A stretch of 64,000 bases of DNA from Patellaria atrata CBS 101060 (Eukaryota), in assembly GCA_010093705.1 (NCBI GenBank), contig MU006107.1, forward strand, positions 356,031 to 420,030. The letters run 5' to 3'. Positions within the stretch are counted from its first letter, which is position 1. Every line of letters begins with the position of its first letter. Both the position numbers and the translations under genes were made by a program. Shown one piece after another: positions 4,451 to 17,037 of this stretch. The notes beneath the pieces were generated by a model. The model saw nothing but the letters and a program-made list of their open reading frames with translations. It made no database searches and was not told the DNA's origin.

Positions 4451-7159
4451 TTATGCCAGATATCTGTATGATGGGACGGCGGCATCTTCTATACGCTCGA
4501 GGAATTCTCGTTCAATCAAGCTCTCGATACGCTTCTTGATCATGTTGACGTCCGGTTTGAACCGAGAAGCCAGTTGGGTGATCGTCTCGGTGAGTAGCTG
4601 TTGGTGCGCAAGCTCCTTCCGTTGCCTAAAGCACGAAGCCATGTTAGTGAAAGTAGACTATCGCGTAAATATGTGAGAACATACTTCATTATACGGACGA
4701 CAGCTGCTTCGATGAGATTCTTCCGAGCATCATCGTTCCTCTTCTCCGTCTCTTTGCGCTCTTTCTCTCCTTCGACTTTGTTCCCAGCGGATATAACACC
4801 AACCTTGATCTTGATGAACTTGCTTTGGAATGAGTCGTTGAAGAAGAACTTATCCCCAGCGTTGATTTCCCTACTCATGGGTTCCTTGCGCAAAATTCTA
4901 GTCTTCGGTGCTACTGCCAAAGACTGCAGGTTTCGTCTTAAATCATGTGTCGGGATATTCGTTCGGGCTTGAATCTCTTCTAAACTTAATGATTGATCGG
5001 CCGGTAGATCATTGAAGAGCATTAGTATTATCATTGCATACGTAGAGACGTTCAATTCGTGCCTCCGCTCTTTCAAAGCACCATTGTTAGATGCTACCTT
5101 CGCAAACGTGGCGCGGATATCAGCCGTTCCCATATTCGGCTGCCAGGTCAAGAGTCGTCCTGAATGCTTCTGAGCATAAAATTTCTCGAATCCTTGTTTG
5201 ACTCGCTCAATTGCTGAAGGGAATATACACTTCGTCTGTGTACCATCGCCTTGCTCTCCAGGACCGCTAGTACCATCCATAGGCCAGGTACCGCTAGTAA
5301 GGACGTTGATAGAAAGGTCCACCCGTTGTGGATCCACATCTCCCAGACCGGCAACATACTCTCTATATTTGTTAGAAAGGTCCTGGGATATCGCCATGTC
5401 TTTGAACATAGCTTCCATTTTGAGCGTGAAATTGTTCCCTAGCTCGATCTTCATACGCATCAGCATTTGCTTCTCTACGTCCACGCTTACAGATTTATTC
5501 ATAAGTAAACGTCTGCCAAGATGTTTCTTATAATATCTCTCAAACATGTCTTTGTCTTGGATATAACGGAGTAGTGTGATCGCTTTTTCCAGGATGATAT
5601 CTGCTTCAGACTCAGATTTATCCTTAAGACCCTTCTTCATATTCTCGTCAATGAAGAGCGAAACGTATTCAGAAGAACGCGGGAAGAAGTTAATGAAATC
5701 CGCAAAGCTTCTTGTCAAAGAGGTTTGAATAACTTGGTCGGATTGGAAAGCATCCTTCCATATCTGATCGAATCGGTCCTTTAGCTGAAGAACATCCTCA
5801 ACCCATTTCAGAGCTGCGAAAGTCTGCTGGTTAAGTACCACAGGAGCCTTGGATTTCTCGGCTCCATCTTCTCCAGGAACTATTAGAGGTTGGCCGAGTG
5901 ACGAATCCATCGCGGCCTTGTTTACATCAGCTCCCATCTGACCTATCCGCTTTTGTACGGCCGCTGTCAAGTGGGTCTTTTTGGGATCTACTCGCGCATT
6001 AAGGTCGTACACCATCCCAAGTTCGTCCAAGCGGTCATTGTCGATCATGAATATTACACCACTTTCCATGTCGATCACTTCTTGAATCTTATTAGAGATC
6101 AACTCTTCTTCCACCACTTTCTCAATCTTCCCTCGAGTAGTCTCGGAAAGAGATGCTTTACATCGGTCTTGTTCTTCCTCGAGCCTCTTCTTGGTGTGCC
6201 TACAATATAGGCCAGCTGTAGAATCTCGCAGAAGAGTCTCACCTTCTGAGCGATAAAATTCTCTGCTAGCCTCAAGGAACTCTGTTTCAAAGGACGTAAT
6301 ATAAAGTCTCTGATCCTCGTTTTCTACGTCCGTCTCGTATAGACCTTCGAGCATATAGATGCATGACTTGATAAGAGACTTGTTGATCTGATCCCCTTCG
6401 CGTTCCATTCGTATTTGCTCGAGAATAACGTGGTTCAATATGGAAAGAATCGAGAAATCCGATGAATCGGGAAAAGCTTGAGGCTTTAAGATATTGTCCC
6501 GGAATAAAGACATCGCACATGCAAATATGTGAGCCTGTCTATGGTCTGTACAATACACTCGGTCCTAAACAGATACTATTAGTCGCTATTGTCTTGTTTC
6601 TGTGCGGACTGTGTATTAGACCTACCATATACATAAGGACGTCCGCTAACATGCTCATGCACAACTGATGGTTTTGCCACGCATTCTTTAGGCCTGTCAA
6701 GAACTTTTGACCAGAGATACGTCTCTCGTTTGGAGTTGACCCATTATTCGCTCCTTGTGATATGAGACTGCTGGTCAGTTGCTCCTGTATATAGGACCGA
6801 ACCTCCGTGCTTAACCAGTTCTGTTCAAAATCTCGCACACGTTTGTACAAGGCTTCGCCCCGTTTCTTTAGTACAATCCTATATGCATATCGATATAGCT
6901 CCTCGTAGGAAAGCGTAGACGCGTTCTTTGTGTGTATCTGACGAAATGCGGCAGACAGAATTTCCCACATGCTTTCGAAGTCTACATCATCTCCGTTTAG
7001 GCCCTATGTCATAGTCATTATCTCAGTAAGGATCAAGGACAACAAAGTTGAGCCAAAGGTACGGTGATGTTCGTAGTTGGAGTAGCTTTGGATAATTCAC
7101 AGTGCACTACTTACACGACGAGGCGGCCTTATCTTGCCTCTTCCTCTGCCGGTGAGCAT
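4451..7159 (-). CDS. CUL3: Cullin-3; exons 7159-7115, 7003-6626, 6564-4685, 4625-4451 (825 aa)
   Basis: N-terminal GKIRPPRR, LSYEELYRYAY, cullin domain DKDMFERYYKKHLGRRLL, neddylation motif IEAAVVRIMKQRK, C-terminal IKKRIESLIEREFL; three GT-AG introns keep the frame. Confidence 0.95.
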
Positions 7160-7601
7160 AGTGAGGCCTTGTTTCCTGGCTTTGTTACTGTAGAAGAAAG
7201 TAGGACTAGCTTGGTTCTATGTCCGATTCTATAAAAGTGTAGTGGTAAACCCGAGGGGTATAGTCGAGGAAAAAGAGAAGCTCTTGTAGAAAAGAGAGAT
7301 TGTGTGAACAAAACTGGTCCGACGCCAATGCTAGGCTTAGATTTGTAAACTGAGAAATGTCCCGTAGATTTTCAAAGGAATCATGTAGCAACAGCCTGGG
7401 TACGTGGTGAAAGATCAAGCTCGCTCGTGGTGGGTTGTTTTCAACCGCCGGAATTTCTTCGGCTCAGCCTTGTGACAGCTTGCTGCGCATGAAAGCATCT
7501 TGAAGAGTGAAGTCATTTGCCATATGTAGTACTGATTCAGAATATTTCACCCCTTTTAATCTTCCTCCCACTGTCAAACTTTAATTACACTCTACGTCAA
7601 C

Positions 7602-8621
7602 ATGAACCACAAACAGTCTTTCCTGCGCTTCCTCGCGCAATCTTCAACTGCTCCGCGCATCCTCCCATCTCCATCGTTCGCCGCAAGTCATCGCCGTCTC
7701 CCTCACATTGCACAACCTGCCAGGCTTCGAACTCTTCACCCGCCGCACCGATCCTTCATTTTCGGCAGCATACGTCTCGAATCGACCTCTCCGTCTTCAC
7801 GACCATTGACAGATAGAGTCGAGAACGATGCAACCGCAAACCAAGCGTCGCGCCAGGCGGTGCCGTCCTACATAATGAGCTTCACATGTCGCAAATGCCA
7901 CGAGCGCTCCTCACACAAAGTATCTAAACAGGGATACCACCACGGCACAGTACTCATAACCTGCACGGGGTGTAAGAATAAGCATTTGATCAGCGATCAT
8001 TTAAAGGTATGTTGAAAGAAAGTTAACTGGACAAATTTGTTGTATTTTTTTTAGAAAAGAGGGACGCAAATGCAAGGGTACATGTTCCCTGTCAAGCTGA
8101 TCGGTTAGCACATACGGCCATAGAACAAGGAAAATAGGGCATCCCGTTCGCTCTGCCATACTCAAGCCTTGTATCGGTGCAGTAGTAGTTGGGTGGGTGA
8201 CCACCAGCGAATGCGCACTGCTGTATGTTTTTACTTTTGAATCTGCGCTTGTTGCTAATTTTTTTTACTATTGACTTGTTCTCTATGCTTCCGTTTCTTT
8301 TTGTTCACTAGAAAGAGTCATTTATGTCCACAGCACCCGGACTAACATACTTCCCAGATATTTTCAGACACAGGCATTACAATTGAAGAGATCCTTACCA
8401 AAAAGGGCGAGACCATCCAAAAGGGAACCCTTGAGTTCTCCCCAAATGATGAAGTCATCACTACTCCGCCTCCATCCTTAAGAGAAAGTCTTGGCGACCA
8501 GATATATAAGAAGTGGTCCCATCTGGATGAAATAGCGAAGAGAGACGCTGCTGCGGCCAGTCAAGCAGCTTCTACTTCTTCGCGGAAAACATCGCATGTA
8601 CCGTGGAATAAGAAATCGTAA
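7602..8621 (+). CDS. ZIM17: Mitochondrial DNL-type zinc finger Hsp70 escort protein (Zim17/Tim15/Hep1); exons 7602-8006 and 8358-8621 (222 aa)
   Basis: Arg/Ser-rich presequence; FTCRKC...SKQGYHHGTVLITCTGCKNKHLISDHLK|IFSD. A phase-0 intron 8007-8357 (GTATGT...ACTAAC...CCCAG) restores the DHLKIF motif. Confidence 0.92.
8110..8228 (+). rRNA. 5S rRNA: 5S rRNA gene (119 nt), intronic in ZIM17
   Basis: ACATACGGCCATAG...TAGTAGTTGGGTGGGTGACCACCAGCGAAT...GCTGTATGT matches the Pezizomycotina 5S pattern. Helices I, II, IV and V pair by inspection, and a T-run follows. Confidence 0.95.
8228..8232 (+). terminator. RNA polymerase III T-tract terminator of the 5S gene (back-up T-run ~8259-8267)
   Basis: TTTTT at and immediately after the 5S 3' end. 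Confidence 0.75.
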
Positions 8622-9079
8622 TGGGCATGAAAAATTATGATGGATCTGTATATTATAGGTATTCTATGATTTATATTCAAAATCGGTGGAACAAGAGCTG
8701 TTTGATGGCGTTGTATACACTCTCATGTATGACCTAGAACTGACTGGTTGTAAAAAAGAGTTGCTTCGTCTCTACTTTTGTCAATGCATTCTCAGTTTAT
8801 CTTATACCTACATTACGAGAAGGGCCGACTTTGCTGTGAAGTTCGTAGACATTTCACCATAGCTCGAAATGGAGACTTTACTCCGTCCAGCTCATGGACG
8901 GAACAGGACGTGCACAAACATAGAGGGATGCCGTCGGACACAGAAAGGAACGTATTAAAACTTTGAAAATATTCAGTTCCACTTTCCTAGCACCAGCAAA
9001 TGCACGAGAACCAAGTCTACTCTACAAAACTCCAGATCTATGCATTAATACCTTCCCTAATCCGCAACCCCAAGCCACT

Positions 9080-12000
9080 TCACCAACCCCTTCTCCGTCC
9101 CCTAGCCTCCGCAGCTACCTCCTTCCTCTTCGCCTTCTTAGCCTCCGTCTTCTTTCTCTTTTCCCTACCCCACTTCTCAGGATCCCTAACAGCCTCGATG
9201 CGCCTCTTTATTCTCCTACCTTCCCTCTTCTCCCTAACCGCATCCCTAACCTTCTGCAACGCAGCCACATATTCCGTCGTCCCCAACTTCTGTTGCACGA
9301 TTCCCATGGTCTCCGCAGCAGTATCCTTTAACGCCTTGTAGGCGTTCGTAAAGGCCGGGTTGGAGGAGTGCGGTGCCGGAACGTTGGTATCGGTGAGGTT
9401 GTGTAGGGGTAGTAATATGCTGAACAGGCTAGGCGTGAGCGCCTCTTTACTTAGACCGTTACATAATGCGGCTACTAGTTGAAGAGATGCGGTCTTTGGG
9501 TACAGGGAAGGGCTCTTATTCGACTCAAGATCGCGCCTGAGAATCCAGGAGAGGCGCTCGAAGAGATACTGCAGAGCTGTTTTCTTCTTCGGCCGACTGC
9601 TCTCGTTATCGTCTTCAATGCCGTCCTCGTCGTCCTCCGACTCTTCATCCTCTTGATGAGTATACTTCCAGCAAAGGTTATTAGCATCGAAACAGCGGCC
9701 TAGGAACACGAGGTTACGAGCGGTTTGATTCGTGATCTCCTCAGTCACACCAGATACCTTGAGCATGCGCGTACTCGCAGCCGTCAACCGTAACATATCA
9801 TCAGCAGTAAGCTGAAGGCCGCCAGATCCGTTGAGAGGCACAGACGAGAGACCGTCCTTAGCATTTGTGCTTCCGATATCTTGGAAGAAAAGGCCGACTA
9901 GCCGCGCGGCAGATAGTTTAACCCATGCATGAGGAAAAGAGAGGCATGAATGGACTGATGACCATATCCCAGAGTTTGCTGATTGAAAGGTGATGTTCGG
10001 TGACAATTCACAAAGTTTAGCGAAGCTTTGCAATGCATAGTACAAAATCTCCCATTCCGAATCTTCGCCTGTGCTTGTGTTCTGATTGAGGATCCGATCT
10101 ATCTCGTTCAGTACGAGATTCACTTGTTTATCTGAGCTTCTCCCTATCTCAAAATAGAATGTCCAGCATTGTAGCGCAACCCTTCGTAATAGAGGTCGGT
10201 CAGTTTGAGTCAACCAAGTCCGGAGTAAAGCGGAAAATGATTTCATTGACTCCTTGCCTGCCCTTTCAAAAATTTTCTTTACTAGCATCCCGGCCATGCC
10301 ACGGCAATCGCTGGACTCGTCATTCACCATGACCATGACTAGCGGGACGAACATTGTGCTCAGCATTTCCTGGATGATATCATCACCAACCTTATTGAAT
10401 ATAAGATTAATTGCCTCCATAATGGACTGTCTACCCTCGATGTATTTGTACTCTAGGTTCTTTACGAGGAATGCCAGCTGTTTGGCCAGCCTATCTTTTC
10501 CTTGGGGATATTCCATGAGAAATTGGAAGTAGACCGCCCGCGCAAGATCTCGTGATGTTCTCGTTTGATTGGTAACCATGATAGAAGCGACTGTGTCCAA
10601 GACCTCGTACAATTCGACTATGACTATCTTGCGGCTCATGATCGCTTTTATGAAATTGAATGTAACACCTTGGCGGTCAGGTTCTTCCAAATCAGGATTA
10701 AGTCTCAACAGCAGGTAACTCAAATCCGCCTCTTTGACCTCGGTTCTACGACGCTCCCGGAGGATAGCAGATACAAGTTTCAAAGCAGCTTGAGCTATTT
10801 CCGAGTTCATGGAAGGTACACCACGTATGATTCGAACTGCTTCAGATATGTAAACCTTCGAGTTCGCGTCGATGTCCGGTAATGGAACCTTGATGATTGT
10901 GGTCAACAAGCGTATAGAGGCCATTTGGACCTCTTCTTGACCCTGAACAAGAGCGTCCCCTATCACTGGCATAAATCCTGAAATGTTTTCTGGGGTCCGT
11001 AAGCTATCATGTTTGTGAAGTATTGTCCGGAGGATATCCAATGAAAAACGAATAATCTTGTGGACGTGTGAAGTCGTTGCACCCTTCGTAATAGATTTGT
11101 TCGCACTTTTCATTGCAACTAGATACCTTCTTGTCCTATAATCTTCGAGATTTTCTTTGCTAGGATTCTCTCCGTTCTTGTAAGCATCTTTGATGATTTC
11201 ATAACAAAATACCAGGATGGCACGATCTTCAATGGAGTTATTGTGTGATATACCCAATCCAACTCGACGAAGCAGCTCGTCTATTTTCCTTACGGTCTTG
11301 AGGTCCAACTTTTCCTGAAGCAAAGCCTTAACCGGTTGGACGAGCTTGACGAGGTGACTAGTCGATGTTACTTTTGCGATCAACTCCATAGAGTCGTAAC
11401 TCTTACTGCTCTTGACCTCCTTCATCTTACTGATGTATTCTTCAGCATCCTTTTCTTGGCCAGTTGTACCAAAGATATCATCCATGATAATTGTGACGAT
11501 GGAATTCAGACATGAGTCCAGATCTCCAGGTTGTAAAGTTTCGGACATGGAAACTAATATCGAATGTACCGTGAACGACAATACATGGAGCTGATACCCA
11601 CGAAGCAGAGCAGACCGTAGCTCCTTGATAATAAATTCGAGATACTCTGGTCCGATAAGAATGGCTACGTCAACAAGAGTCCGTCGAACCATGTCTCGAG
11701 ACTCTTGCGCTCTACTGCGAAGTATGTGGGCCATATCCATCAAAACTGGAGGCAGTCTCTGATTAAATTCCTCAAGTCCCAGCATCTTTAGCAGTTTTAC
11801 TACTGCAACGGCTACAGGAACGCGAAGACTAACAGTAGACTCATCTTTATTGCGAACATGAATCGTCAGAGGTGGAAGAATGTTATTCACCAGTTCTTGA
11901 CTCAGCTTTTCTTGACTCGGGATGGTTTTAACAAGTTTACTTTCCTTTAAAACAGCTTCTAGCCACTCGTCCTGTTGTGCGCGTTCATTGGAATTCGCTG

Positions 12001-15000
12001 GTAATGAAAAATGTTTCGTACTGATATATCCCTTGGCTTGGGTCGCTCGGTCGAGACTGTCGACCAACAAACTAAGGAGCTTAACAGTAGTCTTCGCAAG
12101 CTCCGGTTTGCTATTCATATATCCAGTGTACCTTCGAAAGATAGCTCTAAATTGTGGCCACTCGAGAGACATTGATAATACGCCTATAGTGTTAACAGCC
12201 TCGGCCGCTAAATTATGCGCACTTGTATCTTCGGCCTGATCGAATATGTAATGTTCGATCAAAGGGATCAAAAAGTGGCTGACATTTTTACTGTGCAAAT
12301 TAGCGGTTTTTGATTCCTTAGCAAGACGTCTGAGAGCTCTTAAACGACGGTGTAGTTGAATGTGGAGAATGTTGGTGAAGAAAGAGGCTTCATCATCCCC
12401 ATCAACGAGAAGTGGGCGCATATCACTAACTGTTTCCCAGGTAGGTAAATGTTGAACCGCATGGTTAACTATCGACAAGTATTCCACTCTTACAAGTTCG
12501 GGTTGGTGCCGTACTCCCTCATAGATTCCAGTCAGAACGACTTGATCAAGAAGCTCTTGGCGTTGCTTGAGCTCGTTATCACCGTCGAAACAGCTAGTTT
12601 CGACGAATCGACGTAAAGAGAACGATGCATTAGTACGGATGACTAGCTCTTCCGTGTCCTTGATGAAAAACAACATGTTAAAGAGTATCGGCCGCCATGA
12701 CTCCATCGATAGTGTAGGATATAAGTCTTCGTTTATCAGGTTGAAGGCTTTTGAGCGGCCATCAAAGTCAGGCTCATCAAGTCTTGTCTTGGAATAGGAG
12801 TTCAGAGCAGTACACAATTGGGCGGCTTGAGAGAGTTCCTCGTTCTTCTGTGCTAGTGCTTCGAGAACACCGCAAAGGAGTTCGCGGCCAAACCGATCCT
12901 GGAAAGAAGCAAACAGTGGAGTGCATGCTTTATACACTTCGACTAGTAGTATATTTTGGGATTTAGGATGGCAAATTGGAATAAAATGCCCGAGTACTTG
13001 TAAGAGATTGATCTTTGTTTTTACACTGACCCTGTTTACTGGTTGTTGTAATAGATATGCAGCAATATCTACGAGGTTATAAACCCCGTCTGTCTCCTGA
13101 ACGAAAGACGCGAGCTCGGATACAACCTCGATAGCAGCCTCGAGAATGTCTTTACTCGGACTCTTGCGTAATAAGGATCCAATGTGAGTCAGCACATGGT
13201 TGGTGTGCTGTGGTAGAATGCTCGTTCGAATATATTCCCACTGATCGTTTTGTGATAAATTGGAACTTGAGTCTAACCCAGCTATTCTGGCAAGATTTAT
13301 CAGTATGTTATTGATTACGAAGAGTTTAACTTCATCCTTCGCAGAAGGGACATCCAGACAATTAACAACTGTAGGTAGAATCTTATTGTTCACACTGTTT
13401 AAGAACGGTGCTAGATGCAACGTGGTGCTCCATATTGAGAACATGCGAAGGATCCCGGAGACAGATTGTGCTGTTTCCACTGGTAAAGTCTCTAATCTCG
13501 GATTAACAAGCTGCTCCAGAATTTCTGGAATGTACTTGTCCCATTCGAATTTCGGATTATTGCTGAATAGTGAATTTAAGCAGCGATAACCGACTTGACG
13601 GATAGATCTATGTAAGGACTCAGATTGTAGATCGTTGTTCTGGTTCGGTACCGACGACGGAGTAAGTCTACTGTTGGACTGAAAGAGACACAAGAGAACC
13701 GCACCGATTATATTATCAGTAAAAGGATTGAGCTCAACCCCTAGAGTTTCAAGCATGTCTTCTAACATGTTTAAAAGCCCGAGTTGCTTTCTTGTATCCA
13801 ACAATCCATGTCTTGTCAGATCGCGGTTGTTTTCTATCGGGAGTCCGTATAAGGTTCCCATTGCAATCTTCAAGAACTCGTTCATATCTTTTGACCCTAG
13901 TCTCGACAAAGCAATGAAGACAGCTTTACGCTTACTCTCTTGCCCTCGTTTCCCGCTAGCTGAACCGGCGCGTGTAATAACCTTGCCGTAGAGCAGTCGA
14001 AGTAAAACAGGCATAAGTTGAGAGCGGTCTTCATCCTGTAGGCTACTATCATCATGACCAAGATCAAGGAAGACCGAGACCTGGTCTCTGAATCTTACAT
14101 CGTCAAGTAGATTGAACAAATTTTCCTCATATCGATTGATAGAATCAATTTTCCATGTCAAGATTGCTTTCAGAGCTACTCGTTGGATTTCAACATCTCC
14201 ATTAGACAGGAGAGAAAGAAGAGCCGAAAAGACTTCGTCGGACTTGAAAAGAGCGCGTGGATTTACAAACTGTACAAAGAGGGATAGCATTGACTTCTGG
14301 TCTTTCCGCGTCCACCGAGAATTGTGCTCATTGGGGGAATTATACGCATCTACATCTCCCGCATCTAGAGCTTGCGGAACTGGGAGGTTTTGGCTGTCTG
14401 ATAATGCCCAATCAAGTAGTACTGGAACTAGCATGCGAGACCTTTTTTCCGCAATTTGTGGAATCGCATTGAGTACTCTGAGACCTTGTGTTCGACAATT
14501 GGAGTTTGTTGACGGCACTCTGGCGTGCTCCTTTTCGAATTGATATTGAAGGGTATCAAGAGCGGATACAGTTGACAATATACTTTGCTGGATAATTGTC
14601 TGGTCTTTCAAGAGATTGGTGCACTGGAATTCCGTCGTGAAACTCTTCATAAAGCTCTTTGAATCAGGGTCTAGAGGGGTTTTGATAGCTTGAGGATTTT
14701 GGGATTGTTCGATGTCACCTCCCTCTCGAATCCAGTCAAAAACGATATCAGTTACTATTAGTTCACCTTCTTTAGTCAAACAAATTTCTTTGAGTGCTGC
14801 GCAAGCATCTTCCCAAATCTGGGAAAGCTTAACGTGGAGTAGACCGAAACAATAACTGACCACCGCTTTGGCAAGCAAATTGTTCGATAAGATGTTCCTG
14901 TAGTCGCTCGATAACTTTCGGATGTACATCGACAAAGATCTTAAATTCTGAACGTCGAAAGAAAGATTCTCGATGATTATGGCCGTTAGGACAACTTCGG

Positions 15001-17037
15001 ATACTTCACCCTGGGTCAACCGCATGACGGAAGCGAAAGTGTTGAGGCACTGAGAACGTAGTATATGCGACGAGCTGCAGAGTCCTCGGAAAATGTAGGG
15101 CAAAATACGTTCTAAATTTACGGGAGCGTGACGAGGGCCTTCCTCATGTTGCTTGATACTCTCTTGTACGACCTCCCAGAACAATGGCATATTCCAAAGT
15201 AGGTCACAATGTCGACATATTATATCCCAATAAGAACTCTCAAGTAAACATCGCGGATGTGTCTGTGATGCATATCTCATCCCGTTGCCGAAGATGAACG
15301 CAGTTGCTGGAGACATGGTAATGGTCTTGGAGGTCTCACTATTTGAGAGACAATCAAGTAGTATGGCACGGACAGAATCTTGGGGTTCAGATTCTACAGA
15401 AACGTTTCTAAAGACTTTGAGAAGACCATCGCAGAGATAAGTGTGGTGTTCTAATCTCTCGCCGGAAGACCACTCCTGAAATACCTGGATTATATGAGCT
15501 TGCCAGGATGCGGGACACGTAATTTTCGTCTTAGATGGGTGATCGAGTCCAGATAATTTAGGGACCAAGATGCAAAGTTTTTCTATGTTGTCTTGCCAAT
15601 GGCGAACAATGAACCTGTAAATGATATTAGCAGAGAGCTAGATAATTTGTAAGTTCGGTCTCACCTTTGAAAATACGAGAGAACTAATCTATCGAATCTG
15701 TCTCTGTCTAGCTCCGCAAACGCATTACAAAAGCTCAAGAATTCATCCCCCCAAGGACATTTAGCAATATTCTCGACTACGCGAATGTGTAAGAGAGCTA
15801 GGTCGAGAGGTCCATAGTGAAAGACTGAAGCTACTGCCGATACAACAGAAGAAGAAAGCGAAGCGTCATTGCTTCTAAGCATTTCACCCACAATGTTCAC
15901 AAGTTCAGAGGTTATTTCGAAGACGAGCGACCAGTCTTCAAGACGGGTACCTTTCCTAACACTGCTCATTACCAGAATGATTCTGGTGGCAATAGCAGCG
16001 CGTGAACCACTTTTAGTAGAAATCAACAGACCTATCTCAGTAAGAAGCACTTCAGCTAGTTGTTTGAAAGTCTTCGAATCCGTATGGTGGATTACTGCAA
16101 TTAGAATGCCCCGTACAACTTCTTCATCGAGGCTTTCTTTAGGCACTTGAGACGGCTCGACATCATCCCGAAAAATGTAATTTATGAGTACACTTAGAAT
16201 CGCGGGTCCTGCGGAATGAACTCCTTTACCTACTCCTTTGATCGAATCCGCGAATAGAGTCATTATTCCTTGTTGATATTGATAGGTATCGCTGTTATCA
16301 GATGTGCCCTCTAAGTCTTGAAAGACATGAGTAACAATACGCTCAAGCGGAGCTTTGTCGCGGTGATATATAGATCCCGCCTTACGGATCAGAAAACTTA
16401 GTGCTTCAGCTGCGAAGCGTGTAATGAAAGACTTCTGGCGTGATTTGCCTAGGAGTGGGGCCACTAAGTCATACACTGGCCGTAGATCTGGAACGAGGAG
16501 TCGTGATAGATACTTGAAAAGCCAGGCTAAACAAGTAAAGCTCCATTCTATAACTTCGACATCCGGATGTTCTGCGGCGACATGCGACACAGTCGAGACG
16601 ACCCTTGAGAAATGTTTCTCAAACGTCGCGCCGAGATCGTGGGCAAAGTGTGAGACTAAACTCAGAAGAGGTTCCAAAGAATAACTATCTGCTTTTTCAA
16701 TGTATTCTACAAGCAGGTCTGCTATGCGATCACCGTAGTGCAATATCTGAGGCAAACTTTCGCATAGTGGGTGAACGGTACGGGAAAAAGCAGTGTAGTT
16801 TTCGGAAAGGTTCAGCTCGTCCCAGTCTACTAAGGAACTTTTGAAATACGAAGTGGTTGTGGAAAGACCCTCGCTGGCGAAATCGTAGCGACGTGTTCGG
16901 CGAATTGGGTCGATATTGAGCTTTGCGATGCGTTTGGTGAACGATTCGAAGTGATGTTTTCTAGATGGCTGTGTGTCCCCCTTCGATCTAAAAATCGAAG
17001 TTTGGTTCTCAATCCGACCTCTTGACATTGCAGGCAT
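9080..17037 (-). CDS. UTP20: U3 snoRNP/SSU processome HEAT-repeat protein Utp20; exons 17037-15665 and 15614-9080 (~2635 aa)
   Basis: N-terminal HHFESFTKRIAKLNIDP, W-ELNLSENY, DRIM-type region, LLRGYQLHVLSFTVH, KMKEVKSSKSYDS, basic C-terminus; a 50-nt GT-AG intron joins the two ORFs in frame. Confidence 0.95.

Follow-up and report, generated by a model that had tools for sequence, protein, structure and literature searches.

Dispersed 5S rRNA genes in many copies, pseudogenes among them, are well established for filamentous ascomycetes. The 5S rRNA genes of fungi are reported to occur in 50-200 copies, with many pseudogenes (PMC5555474), and their evolution is described as a birth-and-death process (Rooney and Ward 2005, as cited in PMC5555474). 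For Podospora 87 5S genes are reported, 72 of which are full-length and dispersed (PMC2441463). The sections of PMC5555474 and PMC2441463 drawn on here place no dispersed ascomycete copy within a spliceosomal intron of a protein gene. 5S genes have also been described as targets of Starship transposons. In Yarrowia 48 of the 108 5S copies are reported to lie 3' of tRNA genes (PMC2566860), and in the human genome intronic Pol III units are reported at high frequency (PMC3509611). A search of the literature outside subscription journals returned no paper in which a fungal 5S gene is placed in a spliceosomal intron.

The 64-kb stretch of Patellaria atrata CBS 101060 DNA analysed here, termed the window and used for all position numbers, contains a 5S rRNA gene placed in the sense orientation within the intron of a ZIM17/Hep1-type gene, which encodes the escort protein of mitochondrial Hsp70 and carries a zf-DNL domain. 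The copy resembles the dispersed 5S genes of Neurospora and Podospora in being a single unit of roughly 120 nt, one of tens in the genome whose flanks are unrelated to each other. It is also similar to the intron-nested Pol III genes of animals, in that an independent unit of the Pol III type, with its promoter inside the gene, is located in a Pol II intron; however, the animal units are mostly tRNA, SINE-like or type-3 genes in long introns, whereas here a 5S gene fills a third of a short fungal intron. The tRNA-5S arrangement of Yarrowia shares the feature of a dispersed 5S gene riding in the sense orientation on another transcription unit. In a clear difference, the Yarrowia fusion is of Pol III with Pol III, recurrent and expressed, whereas the ZIM17 case is single, has a Pol II host and has kept its terminator, and a 5S RNA derived from co-transcription would be hypothetical here. 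Intron-encoded snoRNAs are likewise structured small RNAs in the sense orientation in introns of housekeeping genes, but snoRNAs have no promoter of their own and their presence at the host locus is conserved, whereas the ZIM17 5S is absent from all 79 related loci.

The arrangement of the features is given in Table 1. The cullin-3 gene precedes ZIM17 on the opposite strand, and the UTP20 gene that follows is convergent with ZIM17 with the two stop codons about 460 nt apart. The G+C content is even (0.44-0.52) and no tRNA genes were found in the window. The setting is ordinary gene-dense DNA with housekeeping neighbors and not a repeat island.

Table 1. Features of the ZIM17 locus and its neighbors, in window coordinates
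Feature	Position	Strand	Evidence
Cullin-3	4454-7159	-	100% identical annotated protein
ZIM17/Hep1-type gene exon 1, 135 codons, ending ...HLISDHLK	7602-8006	+	zf-DNL PF05180
Spliceosomal intron, 351 nt, phase 0	8007-8357	+	Splice signals and family alignment
Imperfect direct repeat, upstream copy, TTGTTG-T-ATTTTTTTTA	8037-8054	+	Local alignment of intron flanks
Full-length 5S rRNA gene	8110-8229	+	Rfam RF00001, canonical fold, identity to high-depth contigs
GTATGT, donor-like consensus hexamer in the 3' strand of 5S helix I	8223-8228	+	Sequence
T5 run, Pol III terminator-like tract	8228-8232	+	Sequence
Imperfect direct repeat, downstream copy	8249-8267	+	Local alignment of intron flanks
ZIM17 exon 2, 87 codons and TAA at 8619-8621	8358-8621	+	BLASTP and family alignment
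UTP20, small-subunit processome component, one 2185-codon open frame	9083-15637	-	

The zf-DNL domain (PF05180) occupies residues 92-135 of exon 1 with a Pfam score of 75.2 bits against a cut-off of 27. Two CxxC pairs (Cys-96 and Cys-99, Cys-121 and Cys-124) fall in columns that are nearly invariant in the family alignment. Exon 1 has 92 relatives with E <= 0.001 in the protein collection, mostly from Dothideomycetes and many of them named zf-DNL or ZIM17. The best of the ZIM17 relatives are about 50-63% identical, and the top match covers 64% of the query, with 63% identity in exon 1.

Read without splicing, the frame of exon 1 reaches a stop codon at 8013-8015. The intron that follows exon 1 has a GTATGT donor at 8007-8012, an ACTAAC branch point at 8341-8346 and a CAG acceptor at 8355-8357, all three of which are consensus, and the branch point is placed 12 nt before the AG. 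With positions 8007-8357 removed, exon 2 opens with IFSDTGITIEEIL..., and in alignment A1 the relatives continue after HLK exactly as exon 2 does, giving an HLK/IFSD junction. Exon 2 alone matches the relative P0003 by BLASTP with an E value of 1e-7, starting from residue 1 of the exon at IFSD and covering 25 residues with 44% identity and 84% similarity. The continuity at HLK/IFSD, the exon 2 match and the splice signals together mean that the intron model 8007-8357 is well supported, and joining of 8006 to 8358 is predicted from homology and splice signals. An acceptor at 8367, using the next AG at 8366-8367, was considered and rejected, as it would remove 10 further bases and shift the frame off the IFSD match. 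The relative P0007 (227 residues) continues with VNSSPFHSKED... after HLK and not with IFSD, apparently because the gene caller failed to remove an intron at this position.

The 5S gene is the only Rfam match across the whole 64-kb window. It scores 81.9 bits with RF00001 against a gathering score of 38 (E 7e-16) and covers model positions 1-120 of 120. This bears out the original prediction of a full 5S gene in the sense orientation within the ZIM17 intron, with Rfam placing the gene at 8110-8229 compared with the 8110-8228 first given, a difference of one base that falls in the T run, where the 3' end is ambiguous. The poor covariance-model score named as refuting in that prediction is not seen. 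The T-tract terminator named in that prediction is likewise present in the sequence as the T5 run at 8228-8232, and a second T run (T4, 8235-8238) stands behind it. The internal region of the gene is a good match to the Rfam consensus. Folded alone, positions 8110-8229 form a three-way junction with two arms and a 9-bp helix I closed by the 5' and 3' ends in both the minimum free energy (MFE) and centroid structures, with a predicted energy of -41.6 kcal/mol and a z score of -2.0 compared with shuffled sequences. The same fold is retained as an autonomous domain, again in MFE and centroid structures, when the whole intron is folded. The fold of the whole intron is not better than that of shuffled sequences (z -0.28), with no sign of structure in the intron flanks.

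The intron site was compared at 79 loci encoding ZIM17 relatives, taken from metagenome contigs that were scanned with alignment A2. Both exons are present in 77 of these, the other two loci being cut before the junction. An intron occupies the same phase-0 site in 36 of the 77 loci and is absent from 41. The introns shared at this site are 33-144 nt in length, most of them 45-57 nt, so that the 351-nt intron is 2.4 times as long as the longest, and the GTATGT donor is found in just 5 of the 36. The site after HLK shows marked presence and absence variation, and in two loci (L044 and L045) the intron has a GC-AG form. In the window itself, three introns of the cullin gene measure about 59, 61 and 111 nt when mapped with its annotated protein, which is 100% identical. 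The intron is therefore unusually long for the organism, as had been claimed, and also for its site.

No 5S gene accompanies ZIM17 at the related loci. The search covered 314,967 bases in total with up to 3 kb on each side of the genes. With nhmmer (E <= 10) there was no match at the 79 loci, and blastn (word size 7, E <= 10) returned only matches of 13-22 nt with E >= 1.1, none of which is a 5S gene; the intronic copy of the window, used as a positive control, gave 2.3e-35. Rfam was run on 20 of the 79 loci, among them the two introns long enough to hold a 5S gene, and found nothing. With the intron shared by 36 of 77 loci and a 5S gene at none of the 79, these comparisons argue that the intron site is old and that the intronic 5S is specific to the Patellaria atrata lineage. 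This lineage, which belongs to the Dothideomycetes, is isolated, as the next-best match of the cullin, after the 100% identical Patellaria atrata CBS 101060 protein, is only 66% identical. The suggestion in the original prediction that an insertion had enlarged an ordinary short intron fits these comparative data.

DNA-like contigs from two runs of one sample (X1 and X2) were used to look at the physical join between the 5S gene and its flanks; these runs are possibly the source of the assembly itself, so that the contigs are not independent proof. The contigs of all four runs examined are DNA-like and show no splice joints. In both X1 and X2 unique contigs enter the 5S gene from the two sides, covering 7300-8137 and 8204-8900 with zero differences. 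Many other contigs match only the 5S gene and leave it at 8103-8109 and 8230-8233 into unrelated flanks, and as they diverge at these positions nothing beyond the 5S gene is part of the repeat. Short contigs of high depth (about 2400-2850, with flanks at 326-445) are identical to the intronic copy over 8149-8233, and for its 3' 85 nt at least the intronic copy thus has the majority 5S sequence. The summed depth over the 5S gene exceeds the depth of the flanks about 37-fold in X1 and 52-fold in X2, a ratio that is not a copy number and is therefore read only as tens of 5S copies.

A possible trace of the insertion is found in the intron flanks, where an imperfect direct repeat, TTGTTG(C)T(A)ATTTTTTTTA (Table 1), brackets the segment bearing the 5S gene with one copy 55 nt upstream and the other 19 nt downstream of the gene. 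The flank alignment has a score of 24. Of 2000 shuffled sequences 1 reaches this score, as do 7 of 3000 natural segments of 128 nt from the window, and the natural segments are the fairer null because T runs are common. Removal of the 194 nt between the two copies together with one copy leaves an intron of about 139 nt, which is inside the range of the relatives. A target-site duplication or a DNA insertion guided by microhomology is possible on this evidence. There is no poly(A) tract after the 5S gene and no direct repeat immediately at its ends, and the 5S copies share no body or tail outside the 5S; for these reasons a 5S-derived SINE or a simple LINE-mediated retrocopy is not supported. 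A 22-nt look-alike of the 5S 3' end and trailer (8219-8240) lies at 8253-8274 with 77% identity and overlaps the downstream repeat copy. Two TTGTTC-type decamers are located at 8276-8285 and 8301-8310, 25 nt apart, and the TTGTT motif occurs four times in the intron when the TTGTTG of the flanking repeats is counted, a pattern suggestive of duplications on a small local scale. Positions 8075-8090, approximately -35 to -20 of the 5S gene, form a nearly perfect palindrome, AGGGTACATGT / ACATGTTCCCT, at the place where an A/T-rich element stands in other copies.

Splicing of short fungal introns works by intron definition. The consensus strength of the true donor, branch point and acceptor could compensate for the length of the ZIM17 intron. 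The 5S gene carries its own donor-like hexamer, GTATGT at 8223-8228, which pairs with ACATAC at 8110-8115 in the 5S folds, and this pairing in helix I may hide the hexamer from recognition as modeled. Used with the native branch point and acceptor the hexamer would define an intron of 135 nt, a more typical length than 351 nt, and the product would retain the stop codon at 8013-8015. A second potential decoy is formed by a T8-AG at 8046-8054 following TTAAC at 8023-8027, an acceptor-like element that could give a 48-nt intron from the true donor. Premature stop codons are expected in the products of both decoy introns.

Several alternative explanations of the locus can be weighed using these data. 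The intron would be chimaeric if the 5S repeat had joined two unrelated contigs during assembly, a concern raised by the tens of copies and by the lack of a spanning contig among those listed. However, the two sides belong to a single conserved gene whose halves follow each other correctly in order, strand and phase, which a false join would not yield, and unique contigs enter the 5S gene from either side, making the artefact close to negligible. An error in the gene model would have a different consequence, with ZIM17 ending at the stop codon at 8013-8015 and the 5S gene being intergenic, or with the downstream open reading frame being a dead remnant. The ZIM17 protein of the window was not found in a collection of 5.8 billion proteins searched at 74-2000 residues, in which the neighboring cullin is present at 100% identity, and this could be taken as a sign that the gene as modeled does not exist. 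Against it, exon 2 starts in phase with IFSD, its 87-codon frame is open and it matches a relative with an E value of 1e-7; the donor, branch point and acceptor are consensus, and 36 of 77 relatives have an intron at the same site. The alternative entertained in the original prediction, that the gene ends at 8015, is at odds with this homology evidence for exon 2, and an incorrect gene model is regarded as very improbable. We know of no case of a Pol II-derived 5S RNA. A snoRNA-like route, in which 5S RNA is trimmed from the spliced-out ZIM17 intron to provide a Pol II-driven source, would draw on the sense orientation and on the autonomous 5S fold domain in the intron (MFE and centroid). In Yarrowia, dicistronic tRNA-5S transcripts made by Pol III are reported to be processed to 5S RNA with no TFIIIA involved (PMC2566860), which indicates that 5S ends can arise by processing. 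The intronic gene has nevertheless kept its own terminator, tens of ordinary copies exist elsewhere, and the absence of a 5S gene from every related ZIM17 locus means there is no conserved 5S-in-ZIM17 arrangement; this route is considered remote. Taken more broadly, any use of the intronic 5S, whether by trimming or through bound factors or a GTATGT-hiding fold that set the level of productive ZIM17 mRNA, is judged highly unlikely.

The remaining alternative concerns transcription of the copy itself. If the intronic 5S were a fully active Pol III gene, its TFIIIA/TFIIIC/TFIIIB complex could hinder or modulate Pol II and couple the two genes, the 5S gene lying in the sense orientation some 500 nt away from the start codon of ZIM17. 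This reading takes up the polymerase roadblock and co-regulation raised as possible in the original prediction, and it is weakened by the sequence upstream of the copy. The features in favor of activity are the full length of the copy, its majority sequence with identity to the high-depth 5S contigs over 8149-8233, the consensus-like internal region and the T5 terminator; an active gene would be just as likely to match the majority 5S type. The 5S genes of Neurospora and fission yeast need an A/T-rich (TATA-like) element about 25-30 nt upstream. Near -27 (8079-8088) the intronic copy reads TACATGTTCC and has no A/T-rich element, in contrast to the three upstream flanks listed for other copies, beside which there are 10 more loose ends. 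Between about -31 and -22 these three flanks have ATATAC, ATATAA or CATAAT; two of them come from single contigs and the third is a consensus of 5-6. This difference leaves the Pol III activity of the intronic copy uncertain. Strong interference would in addition be costly, as ZIM17 is a conserved single-domain housekeeping gene with intact exons. Weak or no Pol III transcription thus appears slightly likelier than full activity, which is a lean and not a decision, and full activity with coupling of the two genes is a less probable reading that deserves to be kept in mind.

The explanation preferred here is a passenger insertion specific to the lineage. One of the tens of dispersed 5S copies of a filamentous ascomycete would have inserted into a phase-0 intron of ZIM17/Hep1 that is old and conserved and, together with some flanking DNA, would have lengthened this intron from roughly 50-140 nt to 351 nt. 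ZIM17 itself is intact, with both exons open and conserved and consensus signals in the intron. In the pre-mRNA the 5S part is predicted to fold on itself, which would bring the intron flanks together and cover the donor-like GTATGT. In structure the 5S copy is a good gene, with an intact internal region and a T5 terminator; it would be a tolerated passenger and not a device, with its Pol III activity leaning toward weak. The insertion history is one that we infer from the sequences compared. The structural part taken separately, a real 5S gene in a real intron enlarged in this lineage, is highly probable, and for the joint explanation, which includes the lean toward weak Pol III activity, a rough probability of 0.55 is assigned.

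The ZIM17 case is a further example of two known things, the dispersed 5S genes of fungi and Pol III genes nested in introns. Introns make up an estimated few per cent of the genome, about 3-6%, and with tens of 5S copies one or a few intronic 5S genes per genome are expected by chance on this estimate. As a neutral passenger, which is the expectation, the intronic copy would be a curiosity and not a discovery, whereas if the 5S set the level of productive ZIM17 mRNA it would tie a helper of the mitochondrial chaperone to ribosome synthesis. On the practical side, the ZIM17 gene may be missing from public annotation, possibly owing to the 351-nt intron with its 5S gene, and this odd intron may have defeated gene prediction for ZIM17. 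The locus offers a clean natural case of a Pol III gene in a short fungal Pol II intron, the splicing of which would rely on length and strong signals. It could serve as a test bed for Pol II read-through of a 5S gene, for how a 5S fold helps or hurts splicing when the 5S brings its own GTATGT, and for the question of whether dispersed 5S genes can land safely in introns during their birth-and-death turnover.
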